A stretch of 64,000 nucleotides of DNA from Alphaproteobacteria bacterium (lineage in GTDB: Bacteria > Pseudomonadota > Alphaproteobacteria > MPNO01 > UBA830): contig OZ219791.1 in the NCBI GenBank assembly GCA_964291215.2, positions 1,728,001 to 1,792,000 of the forward strand, written 5' to 3'. The number at the start of each line of letters is the position of its first letter. Within the stretch, counting starts at the first letter, position 1. Positions 19,879 to 63,940 of this stretch are shown piece by piece. A model generated the notes under the pieces. It saw only the letters and a program-made list of their open reading frames with translations. It had not been told where the DNA came from and did not search any database. The position numbers and the translations under genes were made by a program.

Positions 19879-22340
19879 ATCCATCACGTGCAGCCGGGAC
19901 CGGCCTGATAGGCGCACTCCCGTTTTCGGTCACGCTGCTGCTTGTGCCACTGGTGATAGCCATGGCACTGGACTTGTTGCCCGACTTCATTCCATGGGTT
20001 GTTCCATGGGTTATCTTGCCGCTTGTGCCCTACATCAAGATTCTAGAAATGTTATGCAAGAGCGATGTTCCGAATCTGGATCGTAATACGCCAGAGTCTA
20101 AGGTGTTCTGGCATATCGCTATCCTCGTTTTGTGGGCCGTACTTTATCCCTTGTTGGTGATCTTCATACTTTGGGCCGTATGCAACATACCGACCTTGTT
20201 GCTCTACGAACGTTTTGTTCTGGTTGTGTTTTGCGGAATGCTCGGGAGGCTCATCACTATAACATCGCACGACCTGATTCACAGGCCAACAGCATGGATG
20301 CGATGGTTGGCGGCATTCACGATGGGCGCAATCGCCATGCCGCACATGCACACGGAGCATGTCTACATGCACCATGCGGATGTCGCAACGCCGCGTGATA
20401 GGGAGTCCGCACGATTGGGGCAAAGCTATTATAGCTACTTTCTTACTGTACTTCCCTACGTCTATACGGAAGCCATTCGCGTCCAGCATCGCCGGTTGGC
20501 CCGTCGCGGTCTATCGTTCTGGCACAAGTCTAATCCGGTCTGGCTGTGGGCCGCCTTGTGGATCGGCTGGCCTGCTCTGGCGCTTGCTATCGGAGGATGG
20601 GCAGGGCTCGCAGCTTGGGTGTTTATTGTTCTGTTCGCAGCCTGGGGGATCAGAGCCGTCGACTACATACAACATTACGGTTTGCAACGTATTTTGAAGC
20701 CGAATGGCAAGTACGAACGGATCCAGCCGCATCATTCCTGGAATCACTCCAGTCCGTCGAACTATCTGTATTTTTCCATACAGCGGCACTCGGATCATCA
20801 CGACAAACCCACCAAGCCGTATCCACTGCTTCACGGCCTTCCCGAGGGCAAGGCTCCGAGCCTTCCGTCGCACTACGGTTCGATGATGACGTTGCTTCTC
20901 TTTCCATCGGTCTGGTTCAGGAAAATGAACCCGCTTGTCGAAGAGTGGCGCCGCAAATTCTATCCTGATATCAAGGATTGGCGGGCACTCTCCAGCGAGG
21001 CTTACCGTCACCGACCCGACTCGCTCCCCTTGATTTCGGAGATCATTCAGAGCGCACCTTGTCTGGCAAGATACATGGAATCCTGTTATCCGCTCATCGA
21101 CAGCTTAACTGGCCGCCAGTTTCAGCAGATTACCGTTCCCGACAACATCGGCATGGATCCTCACGAGTTGCTCCTTGCCCAGAGGGGTTTGTTGCGGCTC
21201 CATTACGGTCATGAGTTCGGTTACAGAGAAATGATCGAGGACATGGAACTTTCGGAAACGGACATGGCTGATGAAATCGCCGAAAAAGCGCAAATCTGGT
21301 GCAATGACCAAGCTTTCCAGATCGGCGTAAGGATGATGCAGGGGCACATCCTAGGGCAGGATGCCGGCCGGCCGCTCTCCAACATGGCCGACGCGGCGGT
21401 TACTCTGCTGGCGCGGGCCGTTCTCGACGAGTTTGTTGCCCGGCGAGGCCCGGTTCCCGGCAAGGGCGTTGCTTTTGTGGCCCTTGGTCTGTTTGGCGAA
21501 CGCCGAATAACGTTCGAGTCGGAAGTTGAGATCATTGCTTTGGCGGATGGCGCATCGGATATCGAAGGGAACGGTTTTCTCGTAGAGGATCATGCCGGCG
21601 AGTTTTGTCGTAGATTCAACAAGGTCGCAGCGCAGTGGTCGACCAACAACATGCTCGTCAAGTCCGCCCATATGCGGCCCCCGGGAAGTGGAAGGCAAAA
21701 TGTTACCGGCGCGCTTGAGCGTTTTGCTAAGGGTAGTGGGAAGCCGGATGGGGAGTATTTGCGGGAATTGGCGTCGGCAAGGGTTGTGTGCGTGGCCGGT
21801 GATCGCGCAGATGAGTTCGCTGAACAGTTCGAGGAAACTAGGCGCTCCCTTCTCCTCCGGCAATCTCCGTCGGCCGCCGATGTTCTTCACCCTGTGCCCG
21901 ACGAGGAAGGCGAGCGGTTACTCCCTGAGATTTTGGAAGGACCGGGCGGTCTGAGCGATCTCCAACGGGCTGTGCTCGTGTTGCGTCTGCGCTATGGCGA
22001 GAGTTATCCGGACATGACAGATGAGGTTGGCCCTGCAGCTGTCCTGAAAAAGGCCGGAGAACACGGAATTCTCGCATCGCAGGTTGCAGAGGATCTTGCC
22101 GAGGCAGCTGACTTTCTACTGGGCTTGGAATGTGTCCTGTCACTGGTGAACGGCGGTCAGAACGATGAGGCGTATAGGGAGGACGGGGTGAAGGCTGCCA
22201 TGGCCCGGGCCTGCGATGCCGGCGACTTTGAAGAGGTCGTTGCCAAAGCGAAGACGGCGGCCGCCTGCATCGCTGCATGTCCGGTTGCGGTTCTCGGGCC
22301 CGATGCAGGGGGGGGGCAGCTGATGACCTGCCCCCGTTGA
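19875..22340 (+). CDS. AlkB-type membrane di-iron hydroxylase/desaturase fused to degenerate GlnE adenylyltransferase-like domain
   Basis: TM helices and His boxes HDLIH, EHVYMHH, DYIQHYGL, QRHSDHH; C-half follows GlnE (AFQIGV, LSNMADAAV, VALGLFG..SEVEII, ARVV, GGLSDL); last codons read into an IS3 end. Confidence 0.8.
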   Translation: MNPSRAAGTGLIGALPFSVTLLLVPLVIAMALDLLPDFIPWVVPWVILPLVPYIKILEMLCKSDVPNLDRNTPESKVFWHIAILVLWAVLYPLLVIFILWAVCNIPTLLLYERFVLVVFCGMLGRLITITSHDLIHRPTAWMRWLAAFTMGAIAMPHMHTEHVYMHHADVATPRDRESARLGQSYYSYFLTVLPYVYTEAIRVQHRRLARRGLSFWHKSNPVWLWAALWIGWPALALAIGGWAGLAAWVFIVLFAAWGIRAVDYIQHYGLQRILKPNGKYERIQPHHSWNHSSPSNYLYFSIQRHSDHHDKPTKPYPLLHGLPEGKAPSLPSHYGSMMTLLLFPSVWFRKMNPLVEEWRRKFYPDIKDWRALSSEAYRHRPDSLPLISEIIQSAPCLARYMESCYPLIDSLTGRQFQQITVPDNIGMDPHELLLAQRGLLRLHYGHEFGYREMIEDMELSETDMADEIAEKAQIWCNDQAFQIGVRMMQGHILGQDAGRPLSNMADAAVTLLARAVLDEFVARRGPVPGKGVAFVALGLFGERRITFESEVEIIALADGASDIEGNGFLVEDHAGEFCRRFNKVAAQWSTNNMLVKSAHMRPPGSGRQNVTGALERFAKGSGKPDGEYLRELASARVVCVAGDRADEFAEQFEETRRSLLLRQSPSAADVLHPVPDEEGERLLPEILEGPGGLSDLQRAVLVLRLRYGESYPDMTDEVGPAAVLKKAGEHGILASQVAEDLAEAADFLLGLECVLSLVNGGQNDEAYREDGVKAAMARACDAGDFEEVVAKAKTAAACIAACPVAVLGPDAGGGQLMTCPR

Positions 22341-22563
22341 CTGGTCCAGTCGGAATGTTAGTGCATTGACGATTTCTCCGCCAGCTTGGCGTGACGACTG
22401 TCTCGGGTGCCGGCGGCTGGTATCTCAAGCTGCCATTTGGCCGTATGGCGTTGTAGTGGCGCCGCCATGCTTCAATGAGGATCCGGGCCTCGTTCAAGGC
22501 TGTAGAAGATCTCCCCGTCGAAGAACTCGTCGCGGAGGCGGGCGTTGAAGCTTGTAGCCGTTT
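22324..22563 (-). pseudogene. IS3-family remnant (integrase core C-terminus and right end)
   Basis: FNARLRDE..GEIFYSLNEARILIEAWRRHYNAIRP; terminus TGACCTGCCCCC. Confidence 0.8.
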
Positions 22564-22680
22564 CCCACTTCCAGTCTGAAGTGCAACATCCGGCTCTCAT
22601 CGCAGTGAGGGCGTAGCCCGAACGGAGATGAGGGCCGGACGTTGCACAAATTTTTCCCCTCTGCCCTGCTCGATTCCGCC

Positions 22681-23801
22681 TAGTGTCTTGTCATTCGTCA
22701 AATGTCGTATAAAGGCGTTTGAGTTTCACGCGGGCATCGTCGGTGGTGAACTGCCAATCCACCTTGGCCTGGATGCGGTCGCCTGCCAAGCGGCAACTTC
22801 CCGGCGTAGCACCTCGATGCGGCGGTTCAGGCGGATCATGACGTTGAGTTCCACCACGTTCAGCCAACTGCCATGCTTGGGGGTGTAGACGAACTCGAAG
22901 CGGTCCCACAGGGCCTTGGCCTCGTCCGGCGGGTAGGCCTCGTAGAGGGCGCCGGGGAGTGTTGAGATTGTCCATCACTAGGGTGATGGTGGTGGCATCT
23001 TGGTAGCGCCCGGCGATGTCGGCCAGGAACTGCGCCCAATCGATCTTGCGCTCGGTTACCTTGGTCATGCGCTTGCCGGCCAGGGGTTCCGTGAAGACGT
23101 TGCAGGTACCGCAACGTCGATACTCGTAGTCGTTACGCGCTGGCTGTCCCGGCGCCATGGCGATCGGTTGCCGTGTCTCGCCGGTCGGGGCGTTTCGTCC
23201 ATGCAGACCACGGGGAAAGCGGCGGGACGGCGATAGACATCGAGTACCTTCGCTGCGGCGAAGTCGGCGTTCCCTTGAGGAGGAATCACCCACCCGCTGC
23301 CATGGCTTGAGGCAGTTTTTTTTAGAACACGCCGCACCGTCTCGTGTGACACGGTGTAACCAAGCTCGACAACGCGGTCGGCCAGCAGCCGCAACGACCA
23401 TTGCGCGTAACCCTCAGGCGGTTCACCACAACTCAGGGCCACCAAGCGCGCCTCGAAGACGCCGTCGGCTTTTCGCATGTAGGTAGGACGGCGCCGGCCA
23501 CCCAATGCCGCCTCCAACCCCTCTTCAACGAAACGCTTTTTCACCCGGTCTACTTTGCGCATGCTGATGCGCAGAATCTCAGCAATGACCTTCCCGGTCA
23601 TCTGGCATTCATTGAACGCGCCCTCGTCGCAGTTAAGCAGGGCGTTGATTACCTTTTGCGACAGGTGCGAGCCCTTGATCTCCGAAAGTTCTGCCCGTTC
23701 GTCCAGGGTCACCACGTAGCGTTTCATACTCCGACCTCCATCCCGAATGGACGGACAGTCTAGCACCAAATGTACGACATATCATTGCTGACATAACACT
23801 A
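22681..23801 (-). mobile_element. IS630-family element, copy A (frameshifted)
   Basis: TA duplication in CTAG; ends GTGTTATGTCAGC / TGACAAGACAC; WSLRLLA, SHETVRR, VCMDE, DYEYRRCGT, LVMDNLNT motifs. Confidence 0.9.
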
Positions 23802-23844
23802 GGAACAGCTTCAGTTCCTTCAACATCGAGCTTATGCAACGCCT

Positions 23845-26292
23845 TTGGACGAAGGGCCGCTTCGCGGCCATGGGTGCTTGTGATCGGGTTCTGTGCTGAG
23901 TGATCGACGCGAGTGGTTGTGTCGAGATCGGCGCCCTGATGTTTCGATGAGCTGAGCGGAGCTTCACACTTCCTGGTCTCCCGACTGTTCGGGGGGACAA
24001 TCAACCAGGGAGTGAGAGATGAAGGCAAAGGAAGTTTCGCCTCTTCGCCAGAAGACGGTCGAGACGATGAAGGGTCTGTCGCACGCAGGAGAACTATCTG
24101 CGTGAGATTGCGCTGTTCGACCGCCATACCGGGCATCAGCTGGAGAGCCAGACGAGCGAGGAGATCAGTGCCTGGATCCTGGAGCGGATTGACCGTGGTC
24201 TGGCGCCGCGCACGACCAATGTCACGGTGACGGCGATCCGCCTGTTCTATGGCAACGTTCTCGGCCAGCCCGAGAAGGTCGAGCATCTACACTGTCGTCG
24301 GGTTCCCGACCGCCTGCCGCGGACGATCGCGGAAGGGGATGTCGAGCACCTGATCCAGGGGATCACCGACGTACGCACGGCAACCGTTGTCGCCTACGGC
24401 GCTGCGTTGCGCATCTCGGAAGTGGTATCGCTACAGGTCACGGACATCCGCCGCGAGGAAGGTCTCCTGCACATCCGCGAGGGCAAGGGCCACCACGAGC
24501 GCATGGCCTACCTGCCCGGCGCCGTGCTCAAGGAACTGGAGCGTTACTGGAACTGGCCACGCCCTCGAAGCTGGCTCTTCTACCGCCACACACCCGATGA
24601 GCCGATCACCGTGAAAGGGCTGCGGGCCGCCTTCCGGATGGCCTGCGACCAAGTCGGCCTTGATCGCGGGGTCACCTTTCACTGTCTGCGGCACGCGGCC
24701 GCAACACATCTCCTCGAAAGAGGTGCGCCGCAGAGTGTCGTGCAGGACGTCCTGGGACACAAGTCCTCGGAGACAACACGGGTCTATGCCCGCACCACGG
24801 GCATGATGTTCCGCAACCACCCGGTGGAGAGGTTCCTGGCCGCCCCTTGACCCTTCCCACCCCCGGCGTGGCGGACATCATTCGCCACGCCCGGCTTCCG
24901 CGTCACCCACGCGGGACGGCTGGACGCGCTCTCGAGCGAGGTGCTTGACCGCATCGCATCCTGCCGCACGGCGGAACTCGGCGGTCACCTCTACCAGTGC
25001 ACCCGCGCTTCCATGTCGCCTGGCACTCACCGTCACTGCCCCCAGGGCGCCGCGGCGCAGGCGGCGCGGCAGGCGGCCCATGTCCTGCCCTACTTCCACA
25101 TCGTCTTCACCCTGCCCAGGCCCATCGCACAGATCGCCTTCCAGAACCGAAAGACCGTGTTCGACATCCTGTTCCATTGTACCTCCGACACCATCAAGAC
25201 CATCAGCGCCGATCCCCGACGCTTCGCCGCTCACGTCGGCGGCACCGCCGTGCTCCACACCTGGAACCAGAAGATGGAGTGGCATCCCCACATCCACTGC
25301 CTCGTTCCCAACGGCGGCTTCGATATCAACTCCGGAGCGTGGAAGGCGGGGTCCCCCCACTTCTTCGCTCCGGTCCGCGTCCTCGCATCCTTCTTCCGCA
25401 ACCGCTTCCTCGAGAAACTGGCCGAGCTCTCCTTCCACGGCTCCATCGCCCACCTCGCCGACCGCAAGGCCTTCGAGAAGGTGCTGCAGGAAGCACGCAC
25501 GATCGCCTGGAACGTCTACGCGGCCCTTCAACGGACCCGAGGCCGTCATCCGATACCTCTCCCGATACACCCTCGCCATCTCCGACGCCCGCATCATCGC
25601 CTTCGACGGCGCAACCGTCACCATGCGTCACCGCAAGCCCGTCACCAAGCCCGCCGAGAAGCCCACCTACGGCGCCATGCAACTCTCTACTGACGCCTTC
25701 ATCAGACGCTTCCTCCTCCATCGCCTGCCCAAGGGACTGCACCGCATCCGACACTTCGGCATCCTCGCCAACGGATGCCGAGCCAGGACCCTCGACGCCG
25801 TGCGCTCGCTCACCAGCGCCCAGACCAACACCACCGACGACGACACCGGCGTCAAGGTCTGCGCCCACTGCGGCGCACCCTTGCGGCTCGTTCTCGACTT
25901 CGGACGCAAGAGCCTCTCCCCCGAAAAACGCGCCCTTCTCGACGCCCTGATACGCCAACGCGGGCCTCCAACACCACAGCCGCCGCCATGACAGCACCGA
26001 CATCATTCCAGCACAAACGGGGGCCCTACCGCCGCGCGGCTCTGCGTCCTCATGACGTCAGACTGTTGTCCACGGCCCTGCAGAACCCCATGCCAGAGTG
26101 CCCATCCGCGTCCCGCAGGCTCGACAGCCCTCGTCGTGGCCCGAACATCACGGACCGACAGCGGACAACACGCCCCCTCGAGCGTCCGTAAACAACACCT
26201 CCTTCACACTTTCTGCATGCTGACACCGAGGCGGCGCGGCCTTCGTCCAAACCCGCTTAGTGACGGCGCTCCGGCCGTCACTAACCAGAATC
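23845..26292 (+). mobile_element. Tyrosine integrase plus IS91-like (Y2) transposase unit, degenerate
   Basis: Integrase ~24019-24850 (LRISE, HCLRH, LGH, TTRVY); transposase ~24860-25991 (YFHIVFTLP, LHTW..WHPHIHCLV, YLSRY, RIRHFG); CTTCGTCCAAA end motif. Confidence 0.8.
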
Positions 26293-26365
26293 TTGTCGGC
26301 TTCAAGCCACTATTTTGCCGTCGCGCGGCATTGGACTTGGACCGGTGTGGACCGGTTTTTGGACC

Positions 26366-27593
26366 GGTACTGTAACTTGATGTCTGGAAATTTGTCTGAG
26401 GTTTGCGCTTTGAGGCGTTTCACTGGGGGGGCTAGCCCCCCAGTGAAACGCGGCGCCATCGTGCTATCCCATGGAGCTGTAAACCTTCATGGAGGAAGCG
26501 AATGGACCTGCGACACACTACGACGATTGAGGCTGTTTTGGAACATCTGATCGCAAACGGAGCAACGGATCTGGGACGGGTCTTTGGCCAGCTCTTCGAG
26601 CTTGCGATGCAAATCGAGCGCGAGCAGTACTTGAAAGCGGGCCACCGGACGCCGGAGCGACAGGGCTATGCCAACGGCTACAAGCGGATCGACACCCCCA
26701 CTGTTGCCGTTCAGGTGCCAAAGACGGCCGGTCACGGGGACGACCCCCCCAGTCGCTTGAACGCGGCCAGCGATCTTCTCGCGCCGTAGCCGAGATGTAC
26801 ATCAAGGGTGTTTCCACACGGCAGGATGTAATGCGCGAGTTCGGGAGCCTGTCCTCTTCTCAGGGGGCCACCAGGTTGCTCGATGAAGAACTCGCCGCGC
26901 AACCGGCCCCTGATGAAATACCTGGATGCGCGCTACGAAAAAGCCCGCCATGACGGCGTTGTGCGCGATGTTGCAGTGCTCTCGGCCATCGGAATAGGGG
27001 CTGCAGGCACGTTCTGGGGCTCTCTGTGGCGCTCTCCGAGGCCGAGGTCCATTGGAGAGCCTTCCTGGAAAGCTTGCTAGCCCTGCATGGTACGACCTTC
27101 ATCGTCCGGATGACCATGCTGGGCTGAAAGCGGCACGACGCGCGGTGCTGGGCGCGGCGACGTGGCAGCGCTGCCAGTTCCACCTGGCGCAAAACGCCGT
27201 GCACCGAACAACGACATCAGGAAACGTATTGGAAAACAGCTCAGAGCCACGCCTCCTCACTCCAAACCGCCGAGGCTGAACTAGGCGCCCTCGTGGCCAG
27301 CGACAAGCATCCAGGCTTCCTGGCTGGAAAAGAATGCGGGGCTCGCTGTCTTCACCTTGCCCGATGCTCACCACAAACGTATGCGAACCTCGAACGGCAT
27401 CGAGCGACCGATCCAGCAAGAACTCAAGCGGCGCACCTCCAAAGTCAGGGTCTTTCCAAACCTCGCCTCGTTGGAGCGCCTCTCAACCGCGGTCCTCATC
27501 GACGAAAAATGGGAAACCGAAACCAAGGCATACATCAAATGGGAACAGCTCGATCAGCTTCACGACAATTTCCAGACATCAGGTTGCGTAATC
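26366..27593 (+). mobile_element. IS256-family element, degenerate
   Basis: IRs GGTACTGTAACTTGATGTCTGGAAATT / AATTTCCAGACATCAGGTTGCGTAATC; MYIKGVST, LDARYEK, WQRCQFH, RTSNGIER..ELKRRT. Confidence 0.85.
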
Positions 27594-27620
27594 CTGAGAT
27601 CTGCGGTCCAGTTTCCTTCG

Positions 27621-28577: not shown

Positions 28578-28757
28578 GTTCCCCTGTCCGCTTCCGGATA
28601 CGATCGCTCCTTGGGTCCCGGATCGCATTACGCCAGCGTTGCTACAACTCCCATGCGAAACGGTGCAGACCGGGCACGCTTCGGTCTTCCAGGCTGGGTG
28701 CAAGTCCGGTATGGCTATCGTAACCATTTGATTTATTATGAGTTTGCCTTTGTTTCG

Positions 28758-29400: not shown

Positions 29401-29544
29401 AAGTCCGGACGCTTCGACTGCGCATGGGCAACCATCATGGCCGATGCCGATACCCCGGCCAACGACAACAACTGCCCTGGCTACGCCGCCAGACGCGCCG
29501 CATGAGCCCCATCAGCCGACCGATCCCGGCATCGCCATGTCAAA

Positions 29545-29750
29545 CTCACGCCCTCCGATCATCATATCGTTGCCGGAACTGCCATCCAGTGTTTCGTTTT
29601 CGGAATCTCCATAGAAAACGGAGTAATTCCGGCAACTGACGCCGTCGAGATCATCCGGGTCGATCTGCGACTTCCGCACTCCTTTCAGATGGACCGAACC
29701 GTCCTTATAGCCAATGGTCACGCCGTTGTCACCGTCGACGAATTCCAGGT
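29545..29750 (-). pseudogene. RTX/hemolysin-type Ca-binding protein fragment
   Basis: GDSENETLDGSSGNDMMIGG nonapeptide-like repeat, bounded by MITE. Confidence 0.45.
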
Positions 29751-29943
29751 CACGACGATCCCATGCTAATTCAGAGACGCGAAATCCGAATGCGTTGGGG
29801 CTCGGGTCATCACAGATCGCCTCCTTGATCGCAATTTTCGTGCCAAGAAGGTCCCATCGAGCCTTGGCGGCACGATTGCAGCGCGACGCAAACTGAGAAA
29901 ATCTTGCCAGTCGTAGCCGGATTAGCAGCGTGGGATCACCGTG
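29751..29943. mobile_element. ISAs1-type MITE, copy 3
   Basis: 193 bp, reverse complement of 1637-1829; no TSD. Confidence 0.85.
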
Positions 29944-30199
29944 GCACTCAGCTTGATGGCCGTTGACATGCTGAGGCGCGTAGCCTACCTCCGGCCACTT
30001 CAAGCTTGCGTCCCTTGGTCAGGTTGGGGCGAGTGGTTGCGGCCTTTTGAATTGGAATGACGATGTCCCATGCTTCGCTTTCGGACCGCGCAAATGTGGC
30101 AGGTGGCTATCGTATCCGCGGTGTTGCGAGGCCGTGGCGGTAGGCGTTCAATGCGTGGTGGCGCGGCCTCGGGTTTGCCGGCTGAGTGGGTAGAACGTC

Positions 30200-31220
30200 T
30201 TGACGACCCGCAGCGACATGCCCGAATGTTTCGATTCTGAGTCGATAGGAAAGCTCGAAACCGTTGATGTCGGCAGCAGTACGGCCGGGGATGAAGGCCG
30301 TGTGCGCGAGATCGTCGGCCAATACGCTGCCCATATCATCTGGACGGTCAGCAAGCCGTTGCTGCCGAAGCGGCACTATCTCTTGATTTTGCTAATATCC
30401 CCGCGGTTGCGCAGATCACCGAGATCGTTTATCGGATCGATTCAAGTACGCGGGAGCATATGGTCGCAAGGACTCTGGGTCCCGAAGAAACCGGCTATTG
30501 CAAGTTGTCGCTTGATCGACCTGTTGAGATGGCTGTTGCCACCGACGGCAGAGCGAGAGTGTCCCGTCTTGCCGACCGACTTACCGGCGAGGAAGCCAGC
30601 ATAGGCACCATTGATTTCGCGTTCCGCAGTGTGGCCAGTGTCGTCCGACAGAAGTTGAAGGTTAACAAGGCGACGAGGTCGCGCGCGCTCAAGCATCGCC
30701 CCTGCGTGTTATGGATGACCGACTCATCCGGGGCAGGGAAATCGGCTATCGCCGACCGTGTGGAACAGAAGCTTCATGCGAGAGGCCGGCGCACATATCC
30801 CCTGGACGGGGACAATGTCCGGCTCGGGCTCAACAGGGAACTCGGCTTCACCGGCGCGACCGGGTCGAGAATATCCGTCGCGTGGCCGAGGTCGCGAAGC
30901 TGATGGCCGATGCAGGCCAAATTAGTGCCCGCACGGAAATGACCGTTTCCTTCATCTCTCCGTTCAGGTCGGAACGCAGCATGGCGCGCGATTCGGTAGA
31001 GAAAGGCGAGTTCCTGGAGATATTCGTCGACGCGCCGATTGCGGTCTGTGAGGTGTGCAACCCGAAGGGTCTCTACGCCAAAATGCACAGAGGCGAAATC
31101 ATGAACTTCACCGGGATCAATTCTCCTTACGAACCGCCGAACGCTCCCGAACTGCGGGTCGATACGACGACGATGATGGTGGACCTCGCCACGGACCCAG
31201 TCGGTCGATTGCTGGATTGA
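30200..31220 (+). pseudogene. cysNC: CysN C-terminus / APS kinase pseudogene
   Basis: [24 protein letters not shown] (altered P-loop), [44 protein letters not shown] across frameshifts. Confidence 0.85.
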
Positions 31221-42149: not shown

Positions 42150-42159
42150 GCGCCGTCCC

Positions 42160-46837: not shown

Positions 46838-46977
46838 GCGTGGGGCATTGAGGTGGAGCGGGAGAGAGCGGTCAGGTGTTCATGTTGCTCATCGGTGAGC
46901 ACCAGAGGGGGAAGTTGGCGGCCGCGGGGCATCTCGCAAGGTCTCCTGTTACGAGTGAGACCGAGAATATATCACAC

Positions 46978-48176: not shown

Positions 48177-48214
48177 CACTTATTTGCGGGACGCTACACT
48201 AGCCAGACAATCAT

Positions 48215-51200
48215 CACGGCGATCCCACGCTAGGTTTGTTGGAAGGGTCGGTTTTGCTTGTTCAGGATGATTCGCATTTTCGCTGGCTTTTTGTGAAGCG
48301 GCGTAGTATCCGTTGTCGTGGGGGCAGCGGATTTTTTTGAGACGACTCCGGAGGGTTTTGAGCTCCGGGATGTGGTTGTGCGCCTTGCGCGGCCTGATGT
48401 CGCTGGAATCGTGTCGTTGACCGTCATCCTTGGTTTCAAGCAGTTTGCCGGTCGAGGTCTGCGTGTTCACCTGGCGCGGGCGGTGGATTGGCACTGCAGG
48501 CTGGCAGACGGGCGCCCTCAGCTGCGCACCCGTTGGATTGGCTGGCGCCGCGAGGAACAGTTCAGGCGGTTGCCGGGAACAACACGAGGTTTGTTGTTCT
48601 TGGTGGTCGTTTCCGGGCCTTGCCTCGTTTGCGTTGTCGCGGATGGTGCGGCGGCGACTGGGAGGCTGCCGTTGCTTGTTGCGGAGTCGTTTGTCTTGCC
48701 GACGAAGTTCAGCGGCACCATGTACAAGGCGGCGAACTGGGAGTGCGTTGGCAGGAGCTATGCGCGCGCCAGCGGGCGCTATACCGACCGGGGAGGCGAA
48801 GGATCCTTACGTGTTTCCGCTGCGTCGCGACGCGGGATCGTTCGCCGCTTCCTGTGGCGTGGGAGTTGCGGGCGCCGCTGGTCGGCGCAGGAGTTGCGCT
48901 CGATTTATCAGCGGCGCTTTCCGGCGTGCGCAGGGGCACCGCATCGCCTCGGTGCTGTGCGTGATGGCGCGGCTTGCGAACCGGCGCGGCGGCGCACTAC
49001 GACGCAGAAGGAGCTGGAGCAGCGTGGAAGAACAGGGACAAGCCGGTCTCCACCGTGCACCGGGTGCTGCAGAACACCGACCCGGGATGGATCGAGGATG
49101 CGGCGCGCAGCCGCAGGTCGGCAACGCGGTCGACGGCAAGCGCACCGGCGAGGATCATTACGAGACGGTCTCGCTGGCCGGTATTCGATCCTCAACTGTC
49201 ACGACGGGGAGATCGCTGCCGTCCACGCCGCGACGGCCGTCTGCTCATCCTCGACGCGCTCCACACCACCCGCGAGGCTGATCGTCGAGACCCATCGCGC
49301 GGACTGATGGTCAAGGGCAACGCACCTTCGAGAGCATCAACTGGAAGACCGCGAGCGCTACAGCGAAAAGCCCGCGCATGGCCGCCAGCGCATCATCTTC
49401 ACCCCGCTGGCGAAGATGATCAACTAGCAGATCTTCCGCGTCACCCGGCGCGTCGAATTCAGGAAATCCGGAAAACCGAACACGCCATATGACCAGGTTT
49501 TGTCCCCTTGATGATGAAATCATCCACAGCAGTTGGGGGCGGGAAAATGTGGATCTGTGGGAAAGCTATGGTTGCAGAGAGATTCCGCTCCCCTGAGCGA
49601 ACACGCACAGGGGAGCAAACGATCTCCGCGGAGGTTGCCGTTTTGACCTTGACAGAGCCGCGACCGAGTGTGGCAACCTCCCTTGACGTTCCTCGCTGGA
49701 TGCTTGGGTTTGAACCCGTATCATCGTAAGGCGAGGAGCAAGGGACGATGGTCAAGATAGTAGCAGGGGTCAGCAAGGCCAGTCTGGACATCTGGCGCAT
49801 TGTTTTGCGAACGACGCCACGGGCAAGTGGCTTCGCGGCCTCGGGGTGAGCCGGGTGGTAATGGAGGCGACAGGCCGCTATCACCGCAAGGTTCACCAGT
49901 GTCTTCATGACCGGGGCTTCGAGGTTATTCTCGTCAACCCGTTGCGGGCTTCGCCGAGGCGATGGGCCATCTGGCCAAAACCGACCGCGTCGACGCGTTG
50001 ATGTTGGCCAAGATCGGCTGGGCGATCTCGAGCCTGTGGCTCCGCCTTCCTCAAGAGCTTGGAGGATCTCTTGGTGCCGCGCTTGTCGACGCCAAGCAGG
50101 TGGCAGATGAGGTAGATGGCGAAGGCGAGACCGTCACAAGGGCCTCAGCGGCCGATCTCGATGACCGCATTGCCGGCGCGGCGATCAAAGCGGTGATCGC
50201 CGGTGATCCCGAGCAGAGGTACGCCATCCTGACCTCGATCCGGTGACCGCCGCGGCCCTTCTTTGCTGGATGCCCGAACTCGGCAGCGTCGGCAGCCTTG
50301 ATCGGGGTGGCGCCAACGACCACGGTGCTCGGCACATCCGTGGCGGGCGCCGAAGGCCACGTGATCTCCTGTTCATGGCCGCAACCGGCACGCTTCAACG
50401 CGGACCTGGTGCGCCACAAGGCCCACAAAGTCGCTATTGTCGCCGTGATGCGCAAGCTCTGGCGAACACCTTGCTGCGACAGCAGCGTTGCCTGAAGCAC
50501 CGGTGAGTGAGCGAAGGAGACACGGCCCTGCCGAGAGCGCGATCGGGACTGTATCGACAGTCTCCCTCTACGACACGACTTGGGGAGAATGTCTGCAGAT
50601 CATCGTCGAGGTCGACATCAAGGAGATCGAACCGCCGCGCGCCTTGTGGACGGGACACCTGGAACCCGGACGGTCACGTGCCCGGGGACGGCAAGGTAGC
50701 CGCGTTCACGTGACCAATGGACGGCAACCCGCCGCCGGGACCACAAGCTTCATGTCGCCTCGCTCGCAGAGCAAATCCCACACCGCTTGTGGACAACCAC
50801 AGAAAACATCACCACAGACACCCGCAAAAACCTTGCCAAGAAACATGGATGCTCGGTCAAGCGCGCCTCGCCGCAACAGCTGCTCGCATGGAATCGCGGA
50901 CACCGGGTAGTCGAGAGCCACCATCATGTCCGCGATGCCACCTTCCGCGAAGACGACTCCATGCTCCGAACGCGCCCGCAAACAACGCGATCACCCTCGC
51001 AATCATCATCCGCAACAAACGCAAGCTGCGCAAACCCTTCAACAGCTTCGTCGACACCACTATGCCGACAAGCGCAAGCAAGTCCTGCACGCAATCACAA
51101 GACCAGGCTGACCGCGCCTCTCTCCCCGACAGAAACTGCAAGCTTTCGAGCCCGGCAACCAAGGCCTCTCGCTCGCCCCGGATACGCCGACCAATCGCGC

Positions 51201-51313
51201 CCCGCGCCGTAACAGCGCGTCAGCAAATCTCAAAATCGCAGCCTCGAACGCGTCGACCCGCGCCGCGATCAGGACTCCGATCACATCACATCAACAAGCA
51301 TGGGATCACCTTG
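48215..51313 (+). mobile_element. ISAs1-family element with DUF4338 domain and nested IS110, copy A
   Basis: IRs CACGGCGATCCCA / TGGGATCACCTTG; 9-bp TSD GACAATCAT; GTMYKAANW, AVDGK, LDALHT, VKGN, RGH..ES.H..RDATFRED. Confidence 0.88.
49488..50845 (+). mobile_element. IS110/IS1111-family element, degenerate (copy A); ends approximate
   Basis: ORF remnant ~49748-50495: MEATGRYHR, AKTDRVDA, LTSI, KVAIVAVMRKL; interrupts the ISAs1 reading frame. Confidence 0.75.
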
Positions 51314-51825
51314 GACAATCATGCTTCTGCACAAGGACACTTGGCTGACTCGCACCGACAACGGCCCGGCGAGGCGAGCCAAGCCTCAACAACATTGCGC
51401 TCCGCGGTGATCTTCGCCAACCGCCGCGAGGCTATCGACTCCCTGACCCGGCCCCGTCAGGAATCGAAAACGAGTTATTCGGGTCGGAAACGCTGCCCGT
51501 GTTGGCATGCGGGCGGCCCCGAAGCCACGGAATCCAGCCAGAACATGCCGAATTTGGCCTCCGTTTTTTTCAACCTCCCGAAAGATCAGTTGCGGAATGG
51601 GGTAGTCCTGCTACACCGTCACACTGCGCTGGACAAGACGGAGCATATGCATAACGAAACATCATTCGGCCGGAATCCCGGCCCCTGTGCCTGATGTTAC
51701 CACTAATGGCCCAACTTGCCGCATAGAACTGCGACGGAGTGGTACCTGCGGCCCATTTCGCCTATTGTGTCGCGTGCACGGCCGTCACGCTGATTGGCCG
51801 CAACTTCGGGGAAGCCAGCGCTCTA

Positions 51826-53211: not shown

Positions 53212-53221
53212 CGCAGCTGCC

Positions 53222-56539: not shown

Positions 56540-56716
56540 AGGCCTTCGAGGCCATCCTCTCCGACCTATCAATCTAGCGAGGCTTCGTCTCGGACCGACG
56601 AGAGGTCTGCGGACTCCGTTCGCTGTTCTGCTCTGGGCAGTGATTCGCCTGATTGTTGTCGTTGGGCGTTGGTAGCAATGTACCATGTGGGGAACTGACC
56701 GAACGAGATCTTGACG

Positions 56717-57691
56717 ATGACTATAAGGCGGAGCGCCGGTGAGGTTGTTTGCGAGCACGTCACGCTGGAGCTTGAATGTCTCGACAGGCTGTTTCTCAAC
56801 GGCTACGTGCCGATGCTTCAGACGCCGGGTGGCGTGGCCCACTTGTCGGAATGTTCGCGGCATGCCGGTTGCCGTCTTCGGCTCTGATGGCGTCGATGAC
56901 GCGGGCCTTTGTCGCGGTGCTCGAGCGGTTTGTGAGGGGCGGAGGGGGTCGATCTGATCACGTTCGGGCGAGGCTGGCACAAGGACGACCGGATGTTGAA
57001 GCACCTTCGGGACTGGTACGGCAGGGAAGGCGTTTTCTATATCGGTAAGGCTCGGGAGGGCACCCGGGTGCTGCGCACCGAGCGTTGCACCGATCCGCAG
57101 ACGGGCCGCTCGGAGCGGTCACAGGGCTCGGGCACGGCGATGGTGAACCTACTATCTTTACGCCATCGACGATGAGTTCGGCCCTTTCTTCATCAAGTTC
57201 TGTTTCTGTTTCCTCTACAACGCCAAGCTGTGCCTGAACGGCGACGAATAGGTGAAGCGGCAGTTGGCGAAGCGAGGCATCCCGTTCGAGTCTCTAGACA
57301 ACGGCATCCTGAGCTGAGCCCGGCCCGAGCTGACGCAGGAGATTGCTGGCGAGATGACGGCCGAACGCATCGGCGCCTTGTTTCGCAAGCGGCTGGCGCG
57401 CCTGCGGCACACGTTCACGCTCAAGGCATCCATTATGAGCTGTCGATCCTGCAGGTCGAGTGCGCGCTGACCCAAGTCTTCGACCGCCCGCTTCACGGCC
57501 GCCTGTTCTTCGAGAAGGTGATGCGCGACAATCTCGATCTTGGCCGTTTTGACAACGTGCAGTTGATTTTTTGAGTGTTTCGTCTCCAAACGCATGCTAA
57601 CGCGGTACCGCACCCGCGTCATTGCCGACGGCGTTACGTCGTCGCTGCACATCGGTTATAAGCGTTCGCGCATCAAGCAGTACCATAAGGG
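56717..57691 (+). pseudogene. Unclassified (ISNCY-like) transposase remnant, resumes briefly at 63497-63525
   Basis: HVTLELECLDRLFLNGYVPMLQTPGG, FGPFFIKFC..FLYNAKLCLNG, QVECALTQVFDRP, KQYHK|..ALRTE split by ISAs1 copy B. Confidence 0.6.
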
Positions 57692-60162
57692 CCACGGTGA
57701 TCCCACGCCAGGTTTGTTGGAAGGGTCGGTTTCGCTTGTTCAGGATGATTCGCATTTTCGCCGATTTTTTGTGAAGCGGCGTAGTATCCGTTGTCGTGGA
57801 GGCAGCGGATTTTTTGAGACGACTCTGGAGGGTTTTGCGCTCCGGGATGTGGTTGTGCGCCTTGCGCGGCCTGATGTCGCTGGAATCGTGCGGTTGACGG
57901 TATCCTGGTTTCAAGCAGTTTGCCGGTCGAGGTCTGCGTGTTCACCTGGCGCGGGCGGTGGATTGGCGCTGCGGGCTGGCAGACGGGCGCCCTCGGCTGC
58001 GGGACCGTTGGATTGGCTGGCGCCGCGAGGAACAGTTCAGGCGACCACCAGGAACAACACGAGGTTTGTTGTTCCTGGTGGTCGCCGAGTGTTTCCGGGC
58101 CTCGTTTGCGTTGTCGCGGATGGTGCGGCGGCGGCCGGGAGGCTGGCGTTGCTTGTTGCGGAGTCGTTTGTCTCGCCGACGAAGTTCAGCAGCACCATGT
58201 ACAAGGCGGCGAACCGGGAGTGTGTTGGCAGGAGCCATGCGCGCGCCAGCGGGCGCCATAGCGACCGGCACGGGGAGGCGAAGGATCCTTACGTGTTTCC
58301 GCTGCGTCGTGACGCGGGATCGTTCGCCGCTTCCTGCGGCGTGGGAGTTGCGGGCGCCGCTGGTCGGCGCAGGAGTTGCGCTCGATTTATCAGCGGCGCT
58401 TTCCGGCGCGGGGCACCGCATCGCCTCGGTGCTGTGCGTGATTTTGCTGGCGTGGCTTGCGAACCGGCGTGGTTGCGGCGGCGCACTACGCGATGACGCA
58501 GAAGGAGCTGGAGCAGCGTGGAAGAACAGGGACAAGCCGGTCTCCACCGTGCACCGGGTGCTGCAGAACACCGACCCGGGATGGATCGAGGATGCGGCGC
58601 GCAGCCGCAGGTCGGCAACGCGGTCGACGGCAAGCGCGGCCGCACCGGCGAGGATCATTACGAGACAGTCTCGCTGGCACGGGACCGGTATGCCGGTTTC
58701 GATCCTCAACTATCACGACGGGGAGATCGCTGCCGTCCACGCCGCGACGGCACCGGTTGCTGGCCGTCTGCTCACCCTCGACGCGCTCCACACCACCCGC
58801 GCAGCTGATCGTCGAGACCCATCGCGCGGACTGATGGTCAAGGACAACGCATCTTCGAGAGCATCAACTGGAAGACCGCGAGCACGGGACGCTACAGCGA
58901 AAAGCCCGCGCATGGCCGCCAGCGCACCATCGAGGTCTTCACCCCGCTGGCGAAGATGATCAACTAGTCAAGCAGATCTTCCGCGTCACCCGGCGCGTCG
59001 AATTCAGGAAATCCGGAAAACCGAACACGCCATGACCTTATATGACTAGTGTTATGTCAGCAATGATATGTCGTACATTTGGTGCTAGACTGTCCGTCCA
59101 TTCGGGATGGAGGTCGGAGTATGAAACGCTACGTGGTGACCCTGGACGAACGGGCAGAACTTTCGGAGATCACGACCAAGGGCTCGCATCTGTCGCAAAA
59201 GGTAATCAACGCCCTGCTCAACTGCGACGAGGGCGCGTTCAATGAATGCCAGATGACCGGGAAGGTCATTGCCGAGATTCTGCGCATCAGCATGCGCAAA
59301 GTAGATCGGGTGAAAAAGCGTTTCGTTGAAGAGGGGCTGGAGGCGGCATTGGGTGGCCGGCAAGGACGCCGTCCTACCTACATGCGAAAAGCCGACGGCG
59401 CCTTCGAGGCGCGTGGCCCTGAGTTGTGGTGAACCGCCTGAGGGTTACGCGCAATGGTCGTTGCGGCTGCTGGCCGACCGCGTTGTTGAGCTTGGTTACG
59501 CCGTGTCACACGAGACGGTGCGGCGTGTGCTAAAAAAACTGCCTCAAGCCATGGCAGCGGGTGGGTGATTCCTCCTCAAGGGAACGCCGACTTCGCCGCA
59601 GCGAAGGTGCTCGATGTCTATCGCCGCCCCGCCGCTTTCCCCGTGGTCTGCATGGACGAAACGCCCCGACCGGCGAGACACGGCAACCGATCGCCATGGC
59701 GCCGGGACGGGCGTAACGACTACGAGTATCGACGTTGCGGTACCTGCAACGTCTTCACGGAACCCCTGGCCGGCAAGCGCATGACCAAGGTAACCGAGCG
59801 CAAGATCGACTGGGCGCAGTTCCTGGCCGACATCGCCGGGCGCTACCAAGATGCCATCACCATCACCCTGGTGATGGACAATCTCAACACTCCCCGGCGC
59901 CCTCTACGAGGCCTACCCGCCGGACGAGGCCAAGGCCCTGTGGGACCGCTTCGAGTTCGTCTACACCCCCAAGCATGGCAGTTGGCTGAACGTGGTGGAA
60001 CTCAACGTCATGATCCGCCTGAACCGCCGCATCGACTGCATCGAGGTGCTACGCCGGGAAGTTGCCGCTTGGCAGGCGACCGCATCCAGGCCAAGGTGGA
60101 TTGGCAGTTCACCACCGACGATGCCCGCGTGAAACTCAAACGCCTTTATTCGATATTTTACG

Positions 60163-61695
60163 GTAACTGCTCACCCCCTGGTTCCGGCTTGATGTCGGGG
60201 TAGAGTAACGAACGGGTTTTCGTGGAGATTTGACACTGCATGCCGATTCGCTTAGTGGTGGTCATCGAGAACGACGGGGACCGCCAGTGGGCTACTTTGG
60301 ATCGAAGGCGACGAGCGGGCTGTGCCAGCTGCTTCCGGGGCTCCAGCCCCCGCATGATCTGTATGTGGAAACGCATCTCGGAGGCGGCGCGCTGATGAAG
60401 CGCAAGGCCGGGTGATGGCGACGGTCAACGCAGCGTCGCTGCGCGAGGAGTTCGAAGCGGCCAAGACCGCGGCGCTGCCGGCAAGGTGGCGGAAGAGGCC
60501 GTGATCCGCGTCTTCGTCATCCTGCTCGACATCCTCATCGTCGTCCTTCTGGAGAAGACCACGCACGAGCCGGAACTCCGGTCTGCCGCCGTCACAGACG
60601 GACAAGAGCGTGCCGGGAGCAACGGCCCGAAGCCGAACCGGCAGATGGGCGACAACCTGCGCAAGACCATCGTCGAGGAGACGGTCGCGGCCTGCGACGC
60701 CTGCGGCGCCGACGGCCCCGTCGATCGGGAGCGCCGCACGACATCGTGTTCGAGGTCGTCGAGCGCCGCGCCGAGATCAAGGAATGCCCGAAGTGCAAGG
60801 CCCGGGGCCGGTTCCCCGACAACATCCCGTGCAGTACGGCATCGGCATCCAAGCCCTCGTCATCAACCTGCTGGTCGCCCAAATGCTGTCCCTGCGCCGT
60901 GCCGTTGCGTTCGTGCAGGCGATCTCCGGCATCAAGCTCTCCGAGGCCTCGGCTATGCTTTCACGATGCGTCATGGGAGGAGGCCGCCGTGGCGCACCTC
61001 CTGCAACGCCCGGCCCTGCATGTCGATGAGACCGGCTTTCGGATCAACAGTAAGTGGCTTCATGTCGTGGGACCCTGACGTGCAAGTTCCCGCACCGCAA
61101 GCGCGGCCGGGAGGCAAGAGATCGGCCCGTGTTACAAGGGCGTCCTGGGCCTCGTACATGGGCCAGTGTAGCCACCAGCTGTGCGGCAGCCACCTGCTGC
61201 GCGAACTGACCTTTGTCGTCGAGGCTACCGCGCGACTGATGAAGAGCCTGCTCCGCGAGGTCTGCCACAAGGTCAACAAGAGCGCATCCAAAACCCTGAA
61301 CGACGCCGGGCGCAAGCGCTACCGCACCATCCTCACGCAGGGCGCCAGGGAACTGCCCGACATCCCGCCGCCGCCGAAAGGAAAACGCATAGCAAACGCG
61401 CACAACCTGCACGAACGTCTCGTGAAACACGAAAACCTGCGCTTCACAGACGACCCCAACGTCAGCTTCACCAACAATGCCGGAGAACAGAAGATCAGGA
61501 TGGCAAAGGTCAAGGTGTCCGGATGCTTCCGCTCCACGCAAAAGCATGGTGCCGGAGCTCAAGCTACCTCACCTCCATGGCGGCACTCGGCTACAACCCA
61601 CTCGTCGCCACCCAGATCGCCCTCGACGGAAAAGCCGCAGACATCATCAACGAGCACTATGGCCAATCAGAACCCAACAAGGGGTGAGTAGATAC
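60163..61695 (+). mobile_element. IS66-family element, degenerate, with DNA methyltransferase fragment
   Basis: Ends GTAACTGCTCACC / GGTGAGTAGATAC; exact 8-bp TSD ATTTTACG; LHVDETG, QLCGSHLLREL, FTNNAGEQKIRM. Confidence 0.9.
60287..60415 (+). pseudogene. Dam/D12-class N6-adenine methyltransferase N-terminal fragment
   Basis: GYFGSK...PPHDLYVETHLGGGA resembles motifs X and I. Confidence 0.6.
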
Positions 61696-63555
61696 ATTTT
61701 ACGAATGACAAGACACTAGGTTTTGTCCCCTTGATGATGAAATCATCCACAGCAGTTGGGGGCGGGAAAATGTGGGTAACCCCGACTGTGGGAGAGCATC
61801 CGGTTTATGGTTGCAGAGAGATTTCGCTCCCCTGAGCGAACACGCACAGGGGATCAAACGATCTCCGCGGAGGTTGCCGTTTCGACCTTGACAGAGCCGC
61901 GTCCGAGTTTGGCAACCTCCCTTGACGTCCCTCGCTGGATGCCTGGGTTTGAACCCATCGTAAGGCGAGGAGCAAGGGACGATGGTCAAGGTAGTAGCAG
62001 GGGTCAGCCAGTCTGGACATCTGGCGCATTGTTTTGCGAACGACGCCACGAGCTGGCGGGCAGGCGGCCTCGGGGTGAGCCGGGTGGTGGGCGACAGGCC
62101 GCTATCACCGCAAGGTTCACCAGTGTCTTCATGACCGGGGCTTCGAGGTTATTCTCGTCAACCCGTTGCGGGCGCTTCGCCGAGGCGATGGGCCAACCGC
62201 GTCGACGCCAAGATCGGCTGGGCGATCTTGAGCCTGTGGCTCCGCCTTCCTCAAGAGCCTGGAGGATCTCTTGGTGCCGCGCTTGTCGACGCCAAGCAGG
62301 TGGCAGATGAGGTGGATGGCGAGACCGTCACAAGGGCCTCGGCGGCCGATCTCGATGATTGCATTGCCGGCGCGGCGATCAAAGCGGTGATCACCGGTGA
62401 TCCCGAGCAGAGGTACGCCATCCTGACCTCGATCCGGTGACCGCCGCGGCCCTTCTTTGCTGGATGCCCGAACTCGGCAGCGTCGGCAGCCTTGATCGGG
62501 GTGGCGCCAACGACTACGGTGCTCGGCACATCCGTGGCGGGCGCCGAAGGCCACGCGATCTCCTGGCCGCAACCGGCACGCTTCAACGCGGACCTGGTGT
62601 GCCTCAAGACTGCCGGCAAGCAAGGTCGCGATTGTCGCCGTGATGCGCAAGCTCTGGCGAACACCTTGCTGCGACAGCAGCGTTGCCTGAAGCACCGGTG
62701 AGTGAGCGAAGGAGAGACGGCCCTCACCCCTGCCGAGAGCGCGACCGGGACTGTCTCGACAGTCTCCCTCTACGACACGACTTGGGGAGAATGTCTGCAG
62801 ATCATCGTCGAGGCCGACATCGAGGAGATCGAACCGCCTTGGGACACCTGGAACCCGGACGGTCACGTTACCATGCCCGGGGACGGCAAGGTAGCCGCGT
62901 TCACGTGACCAATGGACGGCAACCCGCCGCCGGGACCACAAGCTTCATGTCGCCTCGCTCGCAGAGCAAACCCCACACCGCTTGTGGACAACCACAGAAA
63001 ACATCACCACAGACACCCGCAAAAAACCTTGCCAAGAAACATGGATGCTCGGTCGAACACGCCTCGCCGCAACAGTTGCTCGCATGGGATCGCGGACACC
63101 GGGTGGTCGAGAGCCATCACCACATATCCACCTTCCGCGAAGACGACCCCATGCTCCGAACGCGCCCGCAAACAACGCGATCACCCTCGCAATCATCATC
63201 CACAACAAGCGCAAGCTGCGCAAACCCTTCAACAGCTTCCCACCATGCCGACAAGCGCAAGCAGGTCCTGCACGCAATCACAAGACCAGGCTGACCGCGC
63301 CTCTCTCCCCGGCAGAAACCGCAAGCTTTCGAGCCCGGCAACCAAGGCCTCTCGCTCGCCCCGGATACGCCGACCAATCGCGCCCCGCGCCGCAACAGCG
63401 CGTCAGCAAATCTCAAAATCGCAGCCTCGAACGCGTCGACCCGCGCCGCGATCAGGACTCCGATCACATCACATCAACAAGCATGGGATCACCTTGCCAT
63501 AAGGGGGGCGCTCTGCGCACCGAGTAGTCGGCGGCGACTTAAAACGCCGCCGACA

Positions 63556-63940
63556 GCCGTGGCCGCTCCTGCTGGGTTACTGACCCCGCTTATTCCTCGT
63601 GCTTTCCTTCTTCTGCTTCTCGCTCTTCGACCCGAAGCGTGCCTTTGCATATTTGGCACGGATCCCGCGCAGCTTCGCTGCCTCGGCCTCCAGTTCAGCG
63701 TTCCTGCTCTTCAGGGAGGCCACCTCCTATTCCAGCGCCTCCGCCCCGGCCTTGTTTTTTTACCCCGGGCCTCCTTCAGTTCTTGCTTCAGCTGCTTCGC
63801 CGTCACCTCCGCACGGGCTGCCTCGAGATAGTGCTCCAGCGCCTTCGCCCGGATCCGCTCGGCCTCATCGAGCGCACATCAGCGGCGCCGCTACTCCCAC
63901 CTCGACACGTGTCATCGCTGGAAAGGGGGGCTGGCAGGCA
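63556..63940 (-). pseudogene. IS66-like transposase N-terminal fragment
   Basis: Coiled-coil ELEAEAAKLR followed by FGSKSEKQ. Confidence 0.45.

Follow-up and report, generated by a model that had tools for sequence, protein, structure and literature searches.

Bacteria have no meiosis, and to our knowledge the control of their insertion sequences (IS) is thought to be a matter of selection, regulation, and loss rather than of homology-sensing mutagenesis. The fungal process of repeat-induced point mutation (RIP) inactivates mobile elements that have a similar copy, with both repeat length and identity mattering, and the available text of PMC12543289 describes its lesions as new C-to-T changes in a CpA context, tied to cytosine methyltransferases and to premeiotic cells. 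Conversion between paralogues of flies and primates copies the shorter allele more often, and these paralogues lose sequence cooperatively; the accessible portion of PMC3280953 gives a bias of about 3.4:1 in these eukaryotes, stronger for long primate indels, and mentions no size window or motif. For bacteria, mismatch repair is described as efficient only on loops of up to about 4 nt (PMC2504288, in the part available), and deletions in pseudogenes carry microhomology at about 40% of sites (PMC6054270, likewise in part). Here we analyze the mobile elements of a 64,000-nucleotide stretch of the genome of an uncultured alphaproteobacterium (G000:C2:1728001-1792000, called the window throughout), most of them members of repeated families whose copies lack the same short pieces at the same sites. 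The genome, G000, comprises 6.15 Mb in 2 contigs with 64% GC, and repeated 20-mers make up about 28 to 33% of it. The best matches to its RecA, at 71 to 81%, are mostly to alphaproteobacterial records. A dozen mobile elements lie in the window, and nesting is seen in several (Table 1).

Results

An initial annotation of the window had described transposon interiors riddled with microhomology-flanked deletions of 3 to 15 bp. All eight strings that it quoted as examples were found in place, and gaps ran both ways, as it had said, in three in-window copy pairs aligned at 90 to 96% identity. Deletions were called in full-length copies of nine families (10 to 121 copies each) against rebuilt family consensuses, with single nucleotide polymorphisms (SNPs) polarized by majority only and with the site-size spectrum and singleton counts restricted to families of at least 25 copies. 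Sites common to at least 20% of copies numbered 7, 1, 0, 1, 41, 66, 38, 8, 0, 1, 4, 6, 1, and 3 at sizes of 1 to 14 bp (total, 181). The broad size range therefore gave way to a locked one, with 153 of the 181 common sites at 5 to 8 bp and a sharp upper cutoff (8 sites at 8 bp, none at 9 bp); gaps of 10 to 14 bp look like two adjacent events. Clean singleton deletions of 1 to 10 bp numbered 33, 2, 2, 1, 2, 5, 0, 0, 0, and 1, with 5 to 8 bp accounting for 7 of the 48 clean singletons in all, and de novo deletion input is small.

The same deletion is common to most copies of a family, an observation absent from the initial annotation. Sites present in at least 20% of copies made up 177 of 233 at 5 to 8 bp versus 9 of 86 at 1 to 4 bp (odds ratio, 27; p = 3e-27), and 873 of 1,561 SNPs were singletons. 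Because frameshifting losses of 1 to 4 bp would kill a transposase equally well, selection for gene inactivation is not the cause. Each deletion site had essentially two states: same-length deletions had identical breakpoints in 360 of 365 cases, and a second length allele was found at 8 of 170 sites. At 94 sites with 0 to 1 bp of microhomology, the modal length was present in 3,190 of 3,251 deleted copies, where independent draws give 32%, and this dominance argues for one origin per deletion followed by copying. The polarity is that of deletion, since IS-like pieces of G001, the nearest sister of G000, lacked 3 segments of 5 to 8 bp and those of G000 lacked 56 (43 kb). An IS630 relative in the congener G004 is 1,200 bp long with an open frame, and the median length in G000 is 1,108 bp.

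Deletion load climbed about fivefold with the number of close copies, which supports a dependence on repeats such as had been suggested. Polarized losses of 5 to 8 bp came to 2.6, 3.0, 3.8, 5.6, 9.8, and 13.2 per kb in 743 sampling windows having 0, 1, 2 to 3, 4 to 9, 10 to 29, and 30 or more siblings closer than 5%. At 2 to 5% divergence, 5- to 8-bp indels per substitution were 0.048, 0.067, 0.106, 0.189, 0.220, and 0.272 for 1, 2 to 3, 4 to 9, 10 to 29, 30 to 59, and at least 60 other copies (106 to 150 sampling windows per class, except for two classes of 55 and 84), and indels of 1 to 4 bp stayed flat at 0.03 to 0.08 per substitution. The k-mer and sampling-window analyses behind these per-substitution ratios covered all 1,103 low-copy and 500 of 3,198 high-copy windows.

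Dead DNA that has no close siblings was nearly spared. The IS91-type element lacks one 6-bp piece and its nearest relatives, 85 to 87% identical, lack about 20 (5 to 9 bp); the mobile remnant at 56650-57690 shows, at the available resolution, no 5- to 8-bp loss relative to its closest relative. Single-copy pseudogenes such as cysNC had been proposed as the comparison for repeat targeting, and here the remnants supported repeat dependence. The cysNC remnant showed no 5- to 7-bp loss in a protein alignment to its paralogue that, at 48 to 61% identity, has low resolution, and 27 broken single-copy genes held 8 losses of 5 to 8 bp in 33.6 kb (0.24 per kb). The IS630 and IS66 copies of the window have about 10 to 13 losses per kb, a density some 40-fold higher than in broken genes of unmatched age. 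Among 92 full copies of a 194-bp miniature inverted-repeat transposable element (MITE), just two 5- to 8-bp sites were found, one affecting 3 copies and the other 11, so that short repeats largely escape. Element ends, said to stay intact, were indeed avoided by this class of deletion (within the outermost 50 bp the deleted fraction is 1.8 per kb, against 17 for interiors), but their substitution diversity was higher (34 versus 14 per kb). A requirement for homology to either side during pairing would be expected to spare both the ends and the MITE.

A low-level input exists genome-wide as well. In a two-genome alignment of G000 and G001, with no third genome for polarity, 87 segments of 5 to 8 bp were missing from single-copy DNA of G000 versus 17 from that of G001 (p = 2e-12; 486 kb at 92.6% identity, in 97 blocks from 690 kb of G001's roughly 5 Mb). 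Host genes, described as intact, have open reading frames (ORFs) but were not untouched: across 332 intact single-copy ORFs (318 kb), six-base losses numbered 15 for G000 and 1 for G001.

Microhomology, which had led to the suggestion of microhomology-mediated end joining (MMEJ) or slippage, was enriched at deletion flanks but not required. Among 1,049 distinct sites (234, 467, 272, and 76 at 5, 6, 7, and 8 bp), 508 had at least 2 bp of microhomology, with about 200 expected, and 269 had none, with 546 expected at random. One deletion end preferred S^RYC (C/G, then G/A, T/C, C), and the opposite end had no preference. With a quarter of sites lacking microhomology, the size locked, and a motif at one end, neither ordinary MMEJ nor slippage is supported. 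A motif profile trained on half of the low-microhomology sites separated the held-out half from controls (p = 4e-30, across sites that are not fully independent given related subfamilies), and the motif beat codon-phase-matched controls at every size (787 sites), which removes codon phase as a confounder. A search of 167 sites in coding orientation had given nothing convincing; the motif emerged with 1,049 sites and both strands. It sits on either strand (coding strand, 72 versus 49), no leading- or lagging-strand effect was present (odds ratio, 1.00), and no clear effect of the physical proximity of copies was seen. An RNA-templated origin is disfavored because the motif occurs on both strands and because reverse transcriptases are also intact in G001, which lacks the trait.

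Deletions were poorly linked to neighboring SNPs. At distances of 1 to 5 bp, all four combinations occurred at least twice in 6 of 10 deletion-SNP pairs and in 6% of 52 SNP-SNP pairs, with r2 values of 0.22 and 0.60, respectively. In a young, 2-kb family of 14 copies, with 52 SNP sites and 13 to 22 deletions per copy, the 11 closest pairs differed by 1 to 4 SNPs but by 4 to 10 deletions. Incompatibility between deletion pairs in this family was 0.52, versus 0.49 when shuffled, and that between SNP pairs was 0.38, versus 0.52.

Four congeners, G001 to G004, were checked for the trait, which was present in G002 as well as G000 and not in G001, G003, or G004. Around recA, G002 is 78 to 81% identical to G000 at the nucleotide level. 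Its indels, counted over 171 non-independent pairs at 23 loci chosen around IS66 matches, included 799 of five, 1,076 of six, and 96 of seven bases, almost all of them losses relative to intact copies. Loads in this separate assembly were graded, from about 1 to 30 per copy. The G000 motif profile predicted G002 sites (96 sites; p = 2e-19). Taken without orientation, these sites favored A as the first base (0.45) and T as the second (0.55), a preference consistent with lost pieces starting with ATC when orientation is chosen by that motif. In G003, no such indel accompanied 422 substitutions (21 pairs), with at least 20 predicted from the low-copy rate of G000, and G004 had 2 per 796 (29 pairs), with at least 40 predicted; the IS families of both are small. 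G025, G029, G035, and G036, the copies of which are too few or too young, were left out of scoring. This patchiness within the genus suggests that a gene was gained or lost.

Repair loss, one of the causes first considered, found no support. MutS and MutL of G000 are neither lost nor broken, keep their motifs, and have no distinctive substitution in common with G002, and RecA, UvrABCD, RecFOJQG, RuvABC, exonuclease VII, RNase HI and HII, PolA, DnaQ, and DinB are present without stops. The mutS gene of G002 lies in a stop-free frame of 2,138 codons, compared with 924 to 981 in the other four genomes. Of two other factors named for inventory, Ku was found in none of the five genomes (LigD was not searched) and no Piwi domain or Argonaute was found in G000, the one genome searched. 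RIP as such, offered as an analogy, also failed, as there was no dinucleotide-specific C-to-T hypermutation: C>T made up 55% of the 873 singleton SNPs, at context rates of 0.04 to 0.17 and without favoring CpA. One C5 methylase of G000 sits in a restriction-type locus.

Guidance by CRISPR found no support either, the best match of 112 spacers to the elements being 17 bp. G000 has two arrays, one of which (17 repeats; G000:C2:2063981-2068437) stands beside intact Cas9 (1,046 amino acids), Cas1, and Cas2. The other, with 97 repeats at G000:C1:574170-581300, adjoins an IS256-type remnant and had no cas gene among the ORFs scanned in 14 kb on its upstream side. Topoisomerase IB leaves deletions of 2 to 5 bp, typically with RNase HII loss; TopIB was not found, and rnhB is intact. 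NucS (EndoMS) was not found in G000, where 57 deleted pieces showed no SNP excess, and the CoiA family was not found in the genus. An extra TopIA, Y1 HUH transposase, RecD2, DEDD exonucleases, endonuclease VII, Mrr, and UvdE were not found in G000 or were off the G000-plus-G002 pattern, and a candidate HNH protein is also in G001 and carries a stop in G000. In tblastn searches of G000 with Escherichia coli queries, which can miss distant homologues, Nfi, RusA, SmrA, RecET, YraN, DprA, Vsr, RayT, SbcD, SbcB, Ung, MutH, RecC, and RmuC were unmatched, and ComM was not found by tblastn.

Candidate accessory genes shared with G000, from a screen of 552 kb of G002's 6.1 Mb, are ArdC, Sir2-HerA, MrfA-like, and SNF2 genes. 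The Sir2-HerA pair of G002 has its counterpart at G000:C2:423781-426344 at about 30% identity, and the ArdC and MrfA-like genes compare likewise. A 1,708-amino-acid open frame at G000:C2:2751787-2756913 joins a RecQ-like DEAD helicase to a UvrD-like helicase. Several integrative elements of 2 to 4 copies carry TrwC relaxases, RadC, extra ssb genes, tyrosine-integrase triplets, strawberry-notch helicases, and restriction-type genes. Reverse-transcriptase matches in G000 number 19, nearly all of them short fragments and many of them multicopy; full-length ones occur in G001.

The deletions were checked in assembled Logan contigs from three short-read runs (X1 to X3) of one study, one of which may be the source sample. 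Intact and deleted alleles were both present at the five listed IS630 and IS256 sites, and assignment of alleles copy by copy in high-copy families, which short-read contigs cannot phase, rests on the assembly. X1 and X2 contigs matched single-copy stretches with 0 to 2 differences, including 29917-30830 around cysNC (0 to 1), and an X2 contig equaled 43928-44521 with 0 differences, spanning eight losses of 5 to 18 bp relative to a paralogue. Run X3 holds its own 7-bp deletion at 56660. All three runs also contain deeper, ~87%-identical homologues of window host genes (19748-20530, 31337-31913, and 32759-33405), so a related organism co-occurs in them.

Table 1 lists the elements of the window. 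IS630, IS66, and IS91 labels are Pfam matches, and the other IS labels are our reading of the sequence. The full-length IS copies of the window carry 10 to 37 deletions each, mostly of 5 to 7 bp; some IS families elsewhere in G000 are intact. Target duplications, called near perfect, were perfect in the two elements for which Table 1 gives their length.

TABLE 1 Features of the window, with deletions relative to the family consensus unless stated otherwise ("presumed" marks an assignment that is our assumption)
Feature	Position	Strand	Details
IS630-type copy (DDE_3)	22680..23803	-	14 deletions, 12 of 5-7 bp; 35 full-length copies genome-wide
IS91-type element (integrase and Y2 transposase)	23847..26336	+	internal control
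IS256-type copy (presumed from its sequence)	26366..27594	+	17 deletions, 14 of 5-7 bp; 51 full-length copies
194-bp MITE	29751..29944	+	further copies at 1637-1829 and 17965-18153
cysNC remnant, single copy	30308..31214	+	control; three frame pieces
Second IS66-like element (presumed)	36564..38867	+	14 deletions, 9 of 5-7 bp; 10 full copies
Low-copy IS630-like remnant (presumed)	43870..44750	-	14 pieces of 5-18 bp missing versus paralogue
IS4-like element (presumed)	44760..46840	+	4-25 losses, mostly 5-7 bp, versus relatives
IS30-like copy (presumed)	46978..48177	-	10 deletions, 9 of 5-7 bp; 42 full copies
ISAs1-like element (presumed)	48215..51314	+	nested IS110-like element at about 49487-50856; 26, 30, and 4 deletions in its three parts
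Mobile remnant	56650..57690	+	control; nearest relative 83% identical
Second ISAs1-like element	57693..63496	+	9-bp target duplication; three nested elements inside
IS630-type copy	59046..60162	+	tail at 61696-61714 past IS66 insertion; 14 deletions, 12 of 5-7 bp
IS66-type copy	60163..61695	+	8-bp target duplication; 21 deletions, 20 of 5-7 bp; 121 full copies
IS110-like copy (presumed)	61715..63052	+	37 deletions, 27 of 5-8 bp; 49 full copies

Three further observations concern this neighborhood. IS630 copies are inserted at a CTAG within the end region of the IS30-like element (22564-22681 with 23799-23847, and 46978-47143), and contigs show the empty site. In IS256-type copies, a hairpin of a G-run and a C-run surrounds CTAG and is a further place where insertions land. 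The DUF2971 gene region at 27600-28790 has a 95%-identical duplicate at G000:C2:249325, without indels.

Discussion

The explanation that we favor, and consider probable, is that a putative nuclease makes rare, untemplated deletions of 5 to 7 bases, which are then copied in one direction between paired homologues. With a loose S^RYC motif and a ruler of 5 to 7 nt, such an enzyme would on rare occasions delete de novo anywhere in the genome. Once an intact copy is paired with a closely similar one that has already lost the piece, 5 to 7 bases of the intact strand would loop out. Before religation this loop would be excised, or the shorter copy would serve as a splint for the cut ends, and only the deletion would be transferred. 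Loops of 1 to 4 bases would be handled by the intact MutS and MutL instead. Each family would in this way hold a pool of deletions from which new copies acquire losses site by site until their transposase genes are dead. One-way copying alone would fix sites, so we infer that near-intact copies keep arriving by transposition, which is consistent with the minimum loads of most families and with loads that are overdispersed, at a variance about 3 times binomial in four families.

Tentatively, one could go further and suppose a dedicated, patchily inherited defense enzyme that senses paired repeats and clips 5 to 7 bases at the motif, the damaged copies serving as a heritable memory. If so, any multiplying element would disable itself, and the system would be to prokaryotes, by way of deletions, what RIP is to fungi, as well as a naturally occurring DNA editor that is guided by a template. 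Evolved defense or side effect, the activity may be either.

Several observations weigh against copying by a motif-guided nuclease. Neither 13 tests of families or proteins over the genus nor 59 E. coli queries identified the responsible enzyme. Motif score and site frequency were uncorrelated (rho = 0.05; 190 sites), and single-copy deletions showed the motif only weakly (p = 0.15 overall; p = 0.014 at 40 sites of low microhomology). The linkage test at 1 to 5 bp rests on its 10 deletion-SNP pairs. In older families SNPs too are shuffled over tens of bases (r2 of 0.12 to 0.19 at 8 to 30 bp), and within 5 bp the flanks of deleted alleles are less diverse than those of intact ones (0.018 versus 0.042), so that some ordinary co-conversion occurs. 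Fully intact copies are absent from the full-length sets, in which the minimum load is 1 to 14 (1 to 6 in most families), and deletion load does not track private SNPs. Losses of 1 to 4 bp also double with siblings, from 3.0 to 6.5 per kb, and low-copy repeats may be partly under selection. Finally, the intermediate frequencies of sites would require the presumed influx of intact copies.

The main rival, which we regard as unlikely, is break-initiated biased gene conversion, in which nuclease cleavage at the motif costs 5 to 7 bp through rare end joining, after which RecA mends further breaks with an ectopic copy lacking the site as donor; the resistant allele would then spread like a homing allele, in short conversion tracts. 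It accounts for motif, size, copy-number dependence, and edge sparing, RecA, RecFO, RuvABC, and RecG are present, and both the reduced flank diversity of deleted alleles and the rarity of private SNPs in interiors (1.35 per copy per kb versus 3.9 at ends) are in its favor. However, deletions cross SNP haplotypes only 1 to 12 bp away and pass between sister copies in which SNP haplotypes are preserved across 1.5 kb. The motif is also too loose for its loss to confer resistance, with 18% of random positions scoring above 2, and deletions of 1 to 4 bp do not spread.

That no special enzyme is involved seems improbable. Ordinary small deletions would here meet a general bias toward the shorter allele during ectopic conversion, with loops of at least 5 nt escaping MutS, and the lower cutoff at 5 bp does fit the MutS limit, with MutS and MutL intact. 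There are precedents in the paralogue conversion of flies and primates and, in the available part of PMC4774983, in the shorter-allele bias of transformation. Left unexplained are the upper cutoff, the one-ended motif, and the absence of the trait from G003 and G004 despite the same MutS and MutL, and neither DprA nor ComM was found in G000 by tblastn.

We are similarly doubtful that copies independently lose the same pieces at sequence-fixed hotspots, without a template, while selection hides losses elsewhere. Such hotspots would agree with the enrichment of motif and microhomology, the decoupling of deletions from SNPs, the occasional second length allele, and the G000-specific leak into host DNA, but dead DNA without close siblings (the IS91-like element, the cysNC remnant, 56650-57690, and the 27 broken genes) is nearly spared, load scales with siblings, and one length prevails per site even without microhomology. 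Very improbable is a scrambling of indel alleles among repeat copies by assembly or polishing: high-copy elements cannot be phased with short-read contigs, and indel-only polishing with multimapped reads could decouple indels from SNPs, but both alleles are in three short-read runs, a low-copy element was matched exactly, load variance exceeds that of random mixing, the separate G002 assembly shows graded loads and the same motif, and at most the per-copy mosaic would be affected, leaving size, motif, and polarity untouched.

If templated copying of nuclease-made deletions is correct, it would be a means, not described so far, by which bacteria ruin mobile DNA that is repeated; in full-text searches of literature that largely excludes subscription journals, we found no account of size-locked deletions shared among bacterial IS copies. 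A process that scales with copy number and has a fixed ruler and a motif in two of five congeners points to a nuclease, and comparing the genomes offers a direct way to find it. Such a process would account for the stability of a genome with about 30% repeats, and would give bacteria a new mutational signature, with deletions of two residues leaking into host proteins. If template guided, it could furnish a scarless tool for short deletions.

Several described bacterial processes have parts of this behavior. Loops beyond about 4 nt lie outside efficient bacterial mismatch repair here as in PMC2504288, and loop-directed removal exists, but the large-loop repair in the available text of that source covers anything from tens to hundreds of bases, mentions no preference for sequence, and has no upper limit near 8 nt. 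The deletional bias of pseudogenes (Danneels et al. 2018, PMC6054270, in the portion available) likewise involves short deletions with Ku mostly absent, but in single-copy pseudogenes, with power-law sizes and an excess at multiples of three; in G000, hardly any deletions measure 3 or 9 bp, and copies have their events in common. In transformation, asymmetric recombination clears out mobile DNA (Croucher et al. 2016, PMC4774983), and the D-loop nuclease CoiA, in the accessible sections of PMC13663708, cleaves where single-stranded and double-stranded DNA meet and loosely prefers GATC, not unlike the G002 motif; as described in these sources, the transformation bias and CoiA/YraN differ in acting between cells on whole elements. 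Wolbachia, also repeat rich, has mostly dead IS copies, which the available part of PMC3205602 attributes to ordinary decay by substitution and deletion, with no size lock.

Of the two eukaryotic processes, deletion-biased conversion resembles this one in operation and RIP resembles it in logic. As in deletion-biased conversion, deletions in G000 are shared against the history of substitutions and the deleted allele is favored; the broad size range of that process is not found, only 5 to 8 bp reaching high frequency, and on flank co-transfer the four-gamete data point against and the halved flank diversity points for. Compared with the fly and primate case as available in PMC3280953, the process here is bacterial, locked to 5 to 7 bp, anchored to a motif, apparently largely without flanking co-conversion, and patchy within one genus. 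Compared with RIP, the lesion is a deletion, mostly a single one reused among copies, with a low-level leak into single-copy DNA.

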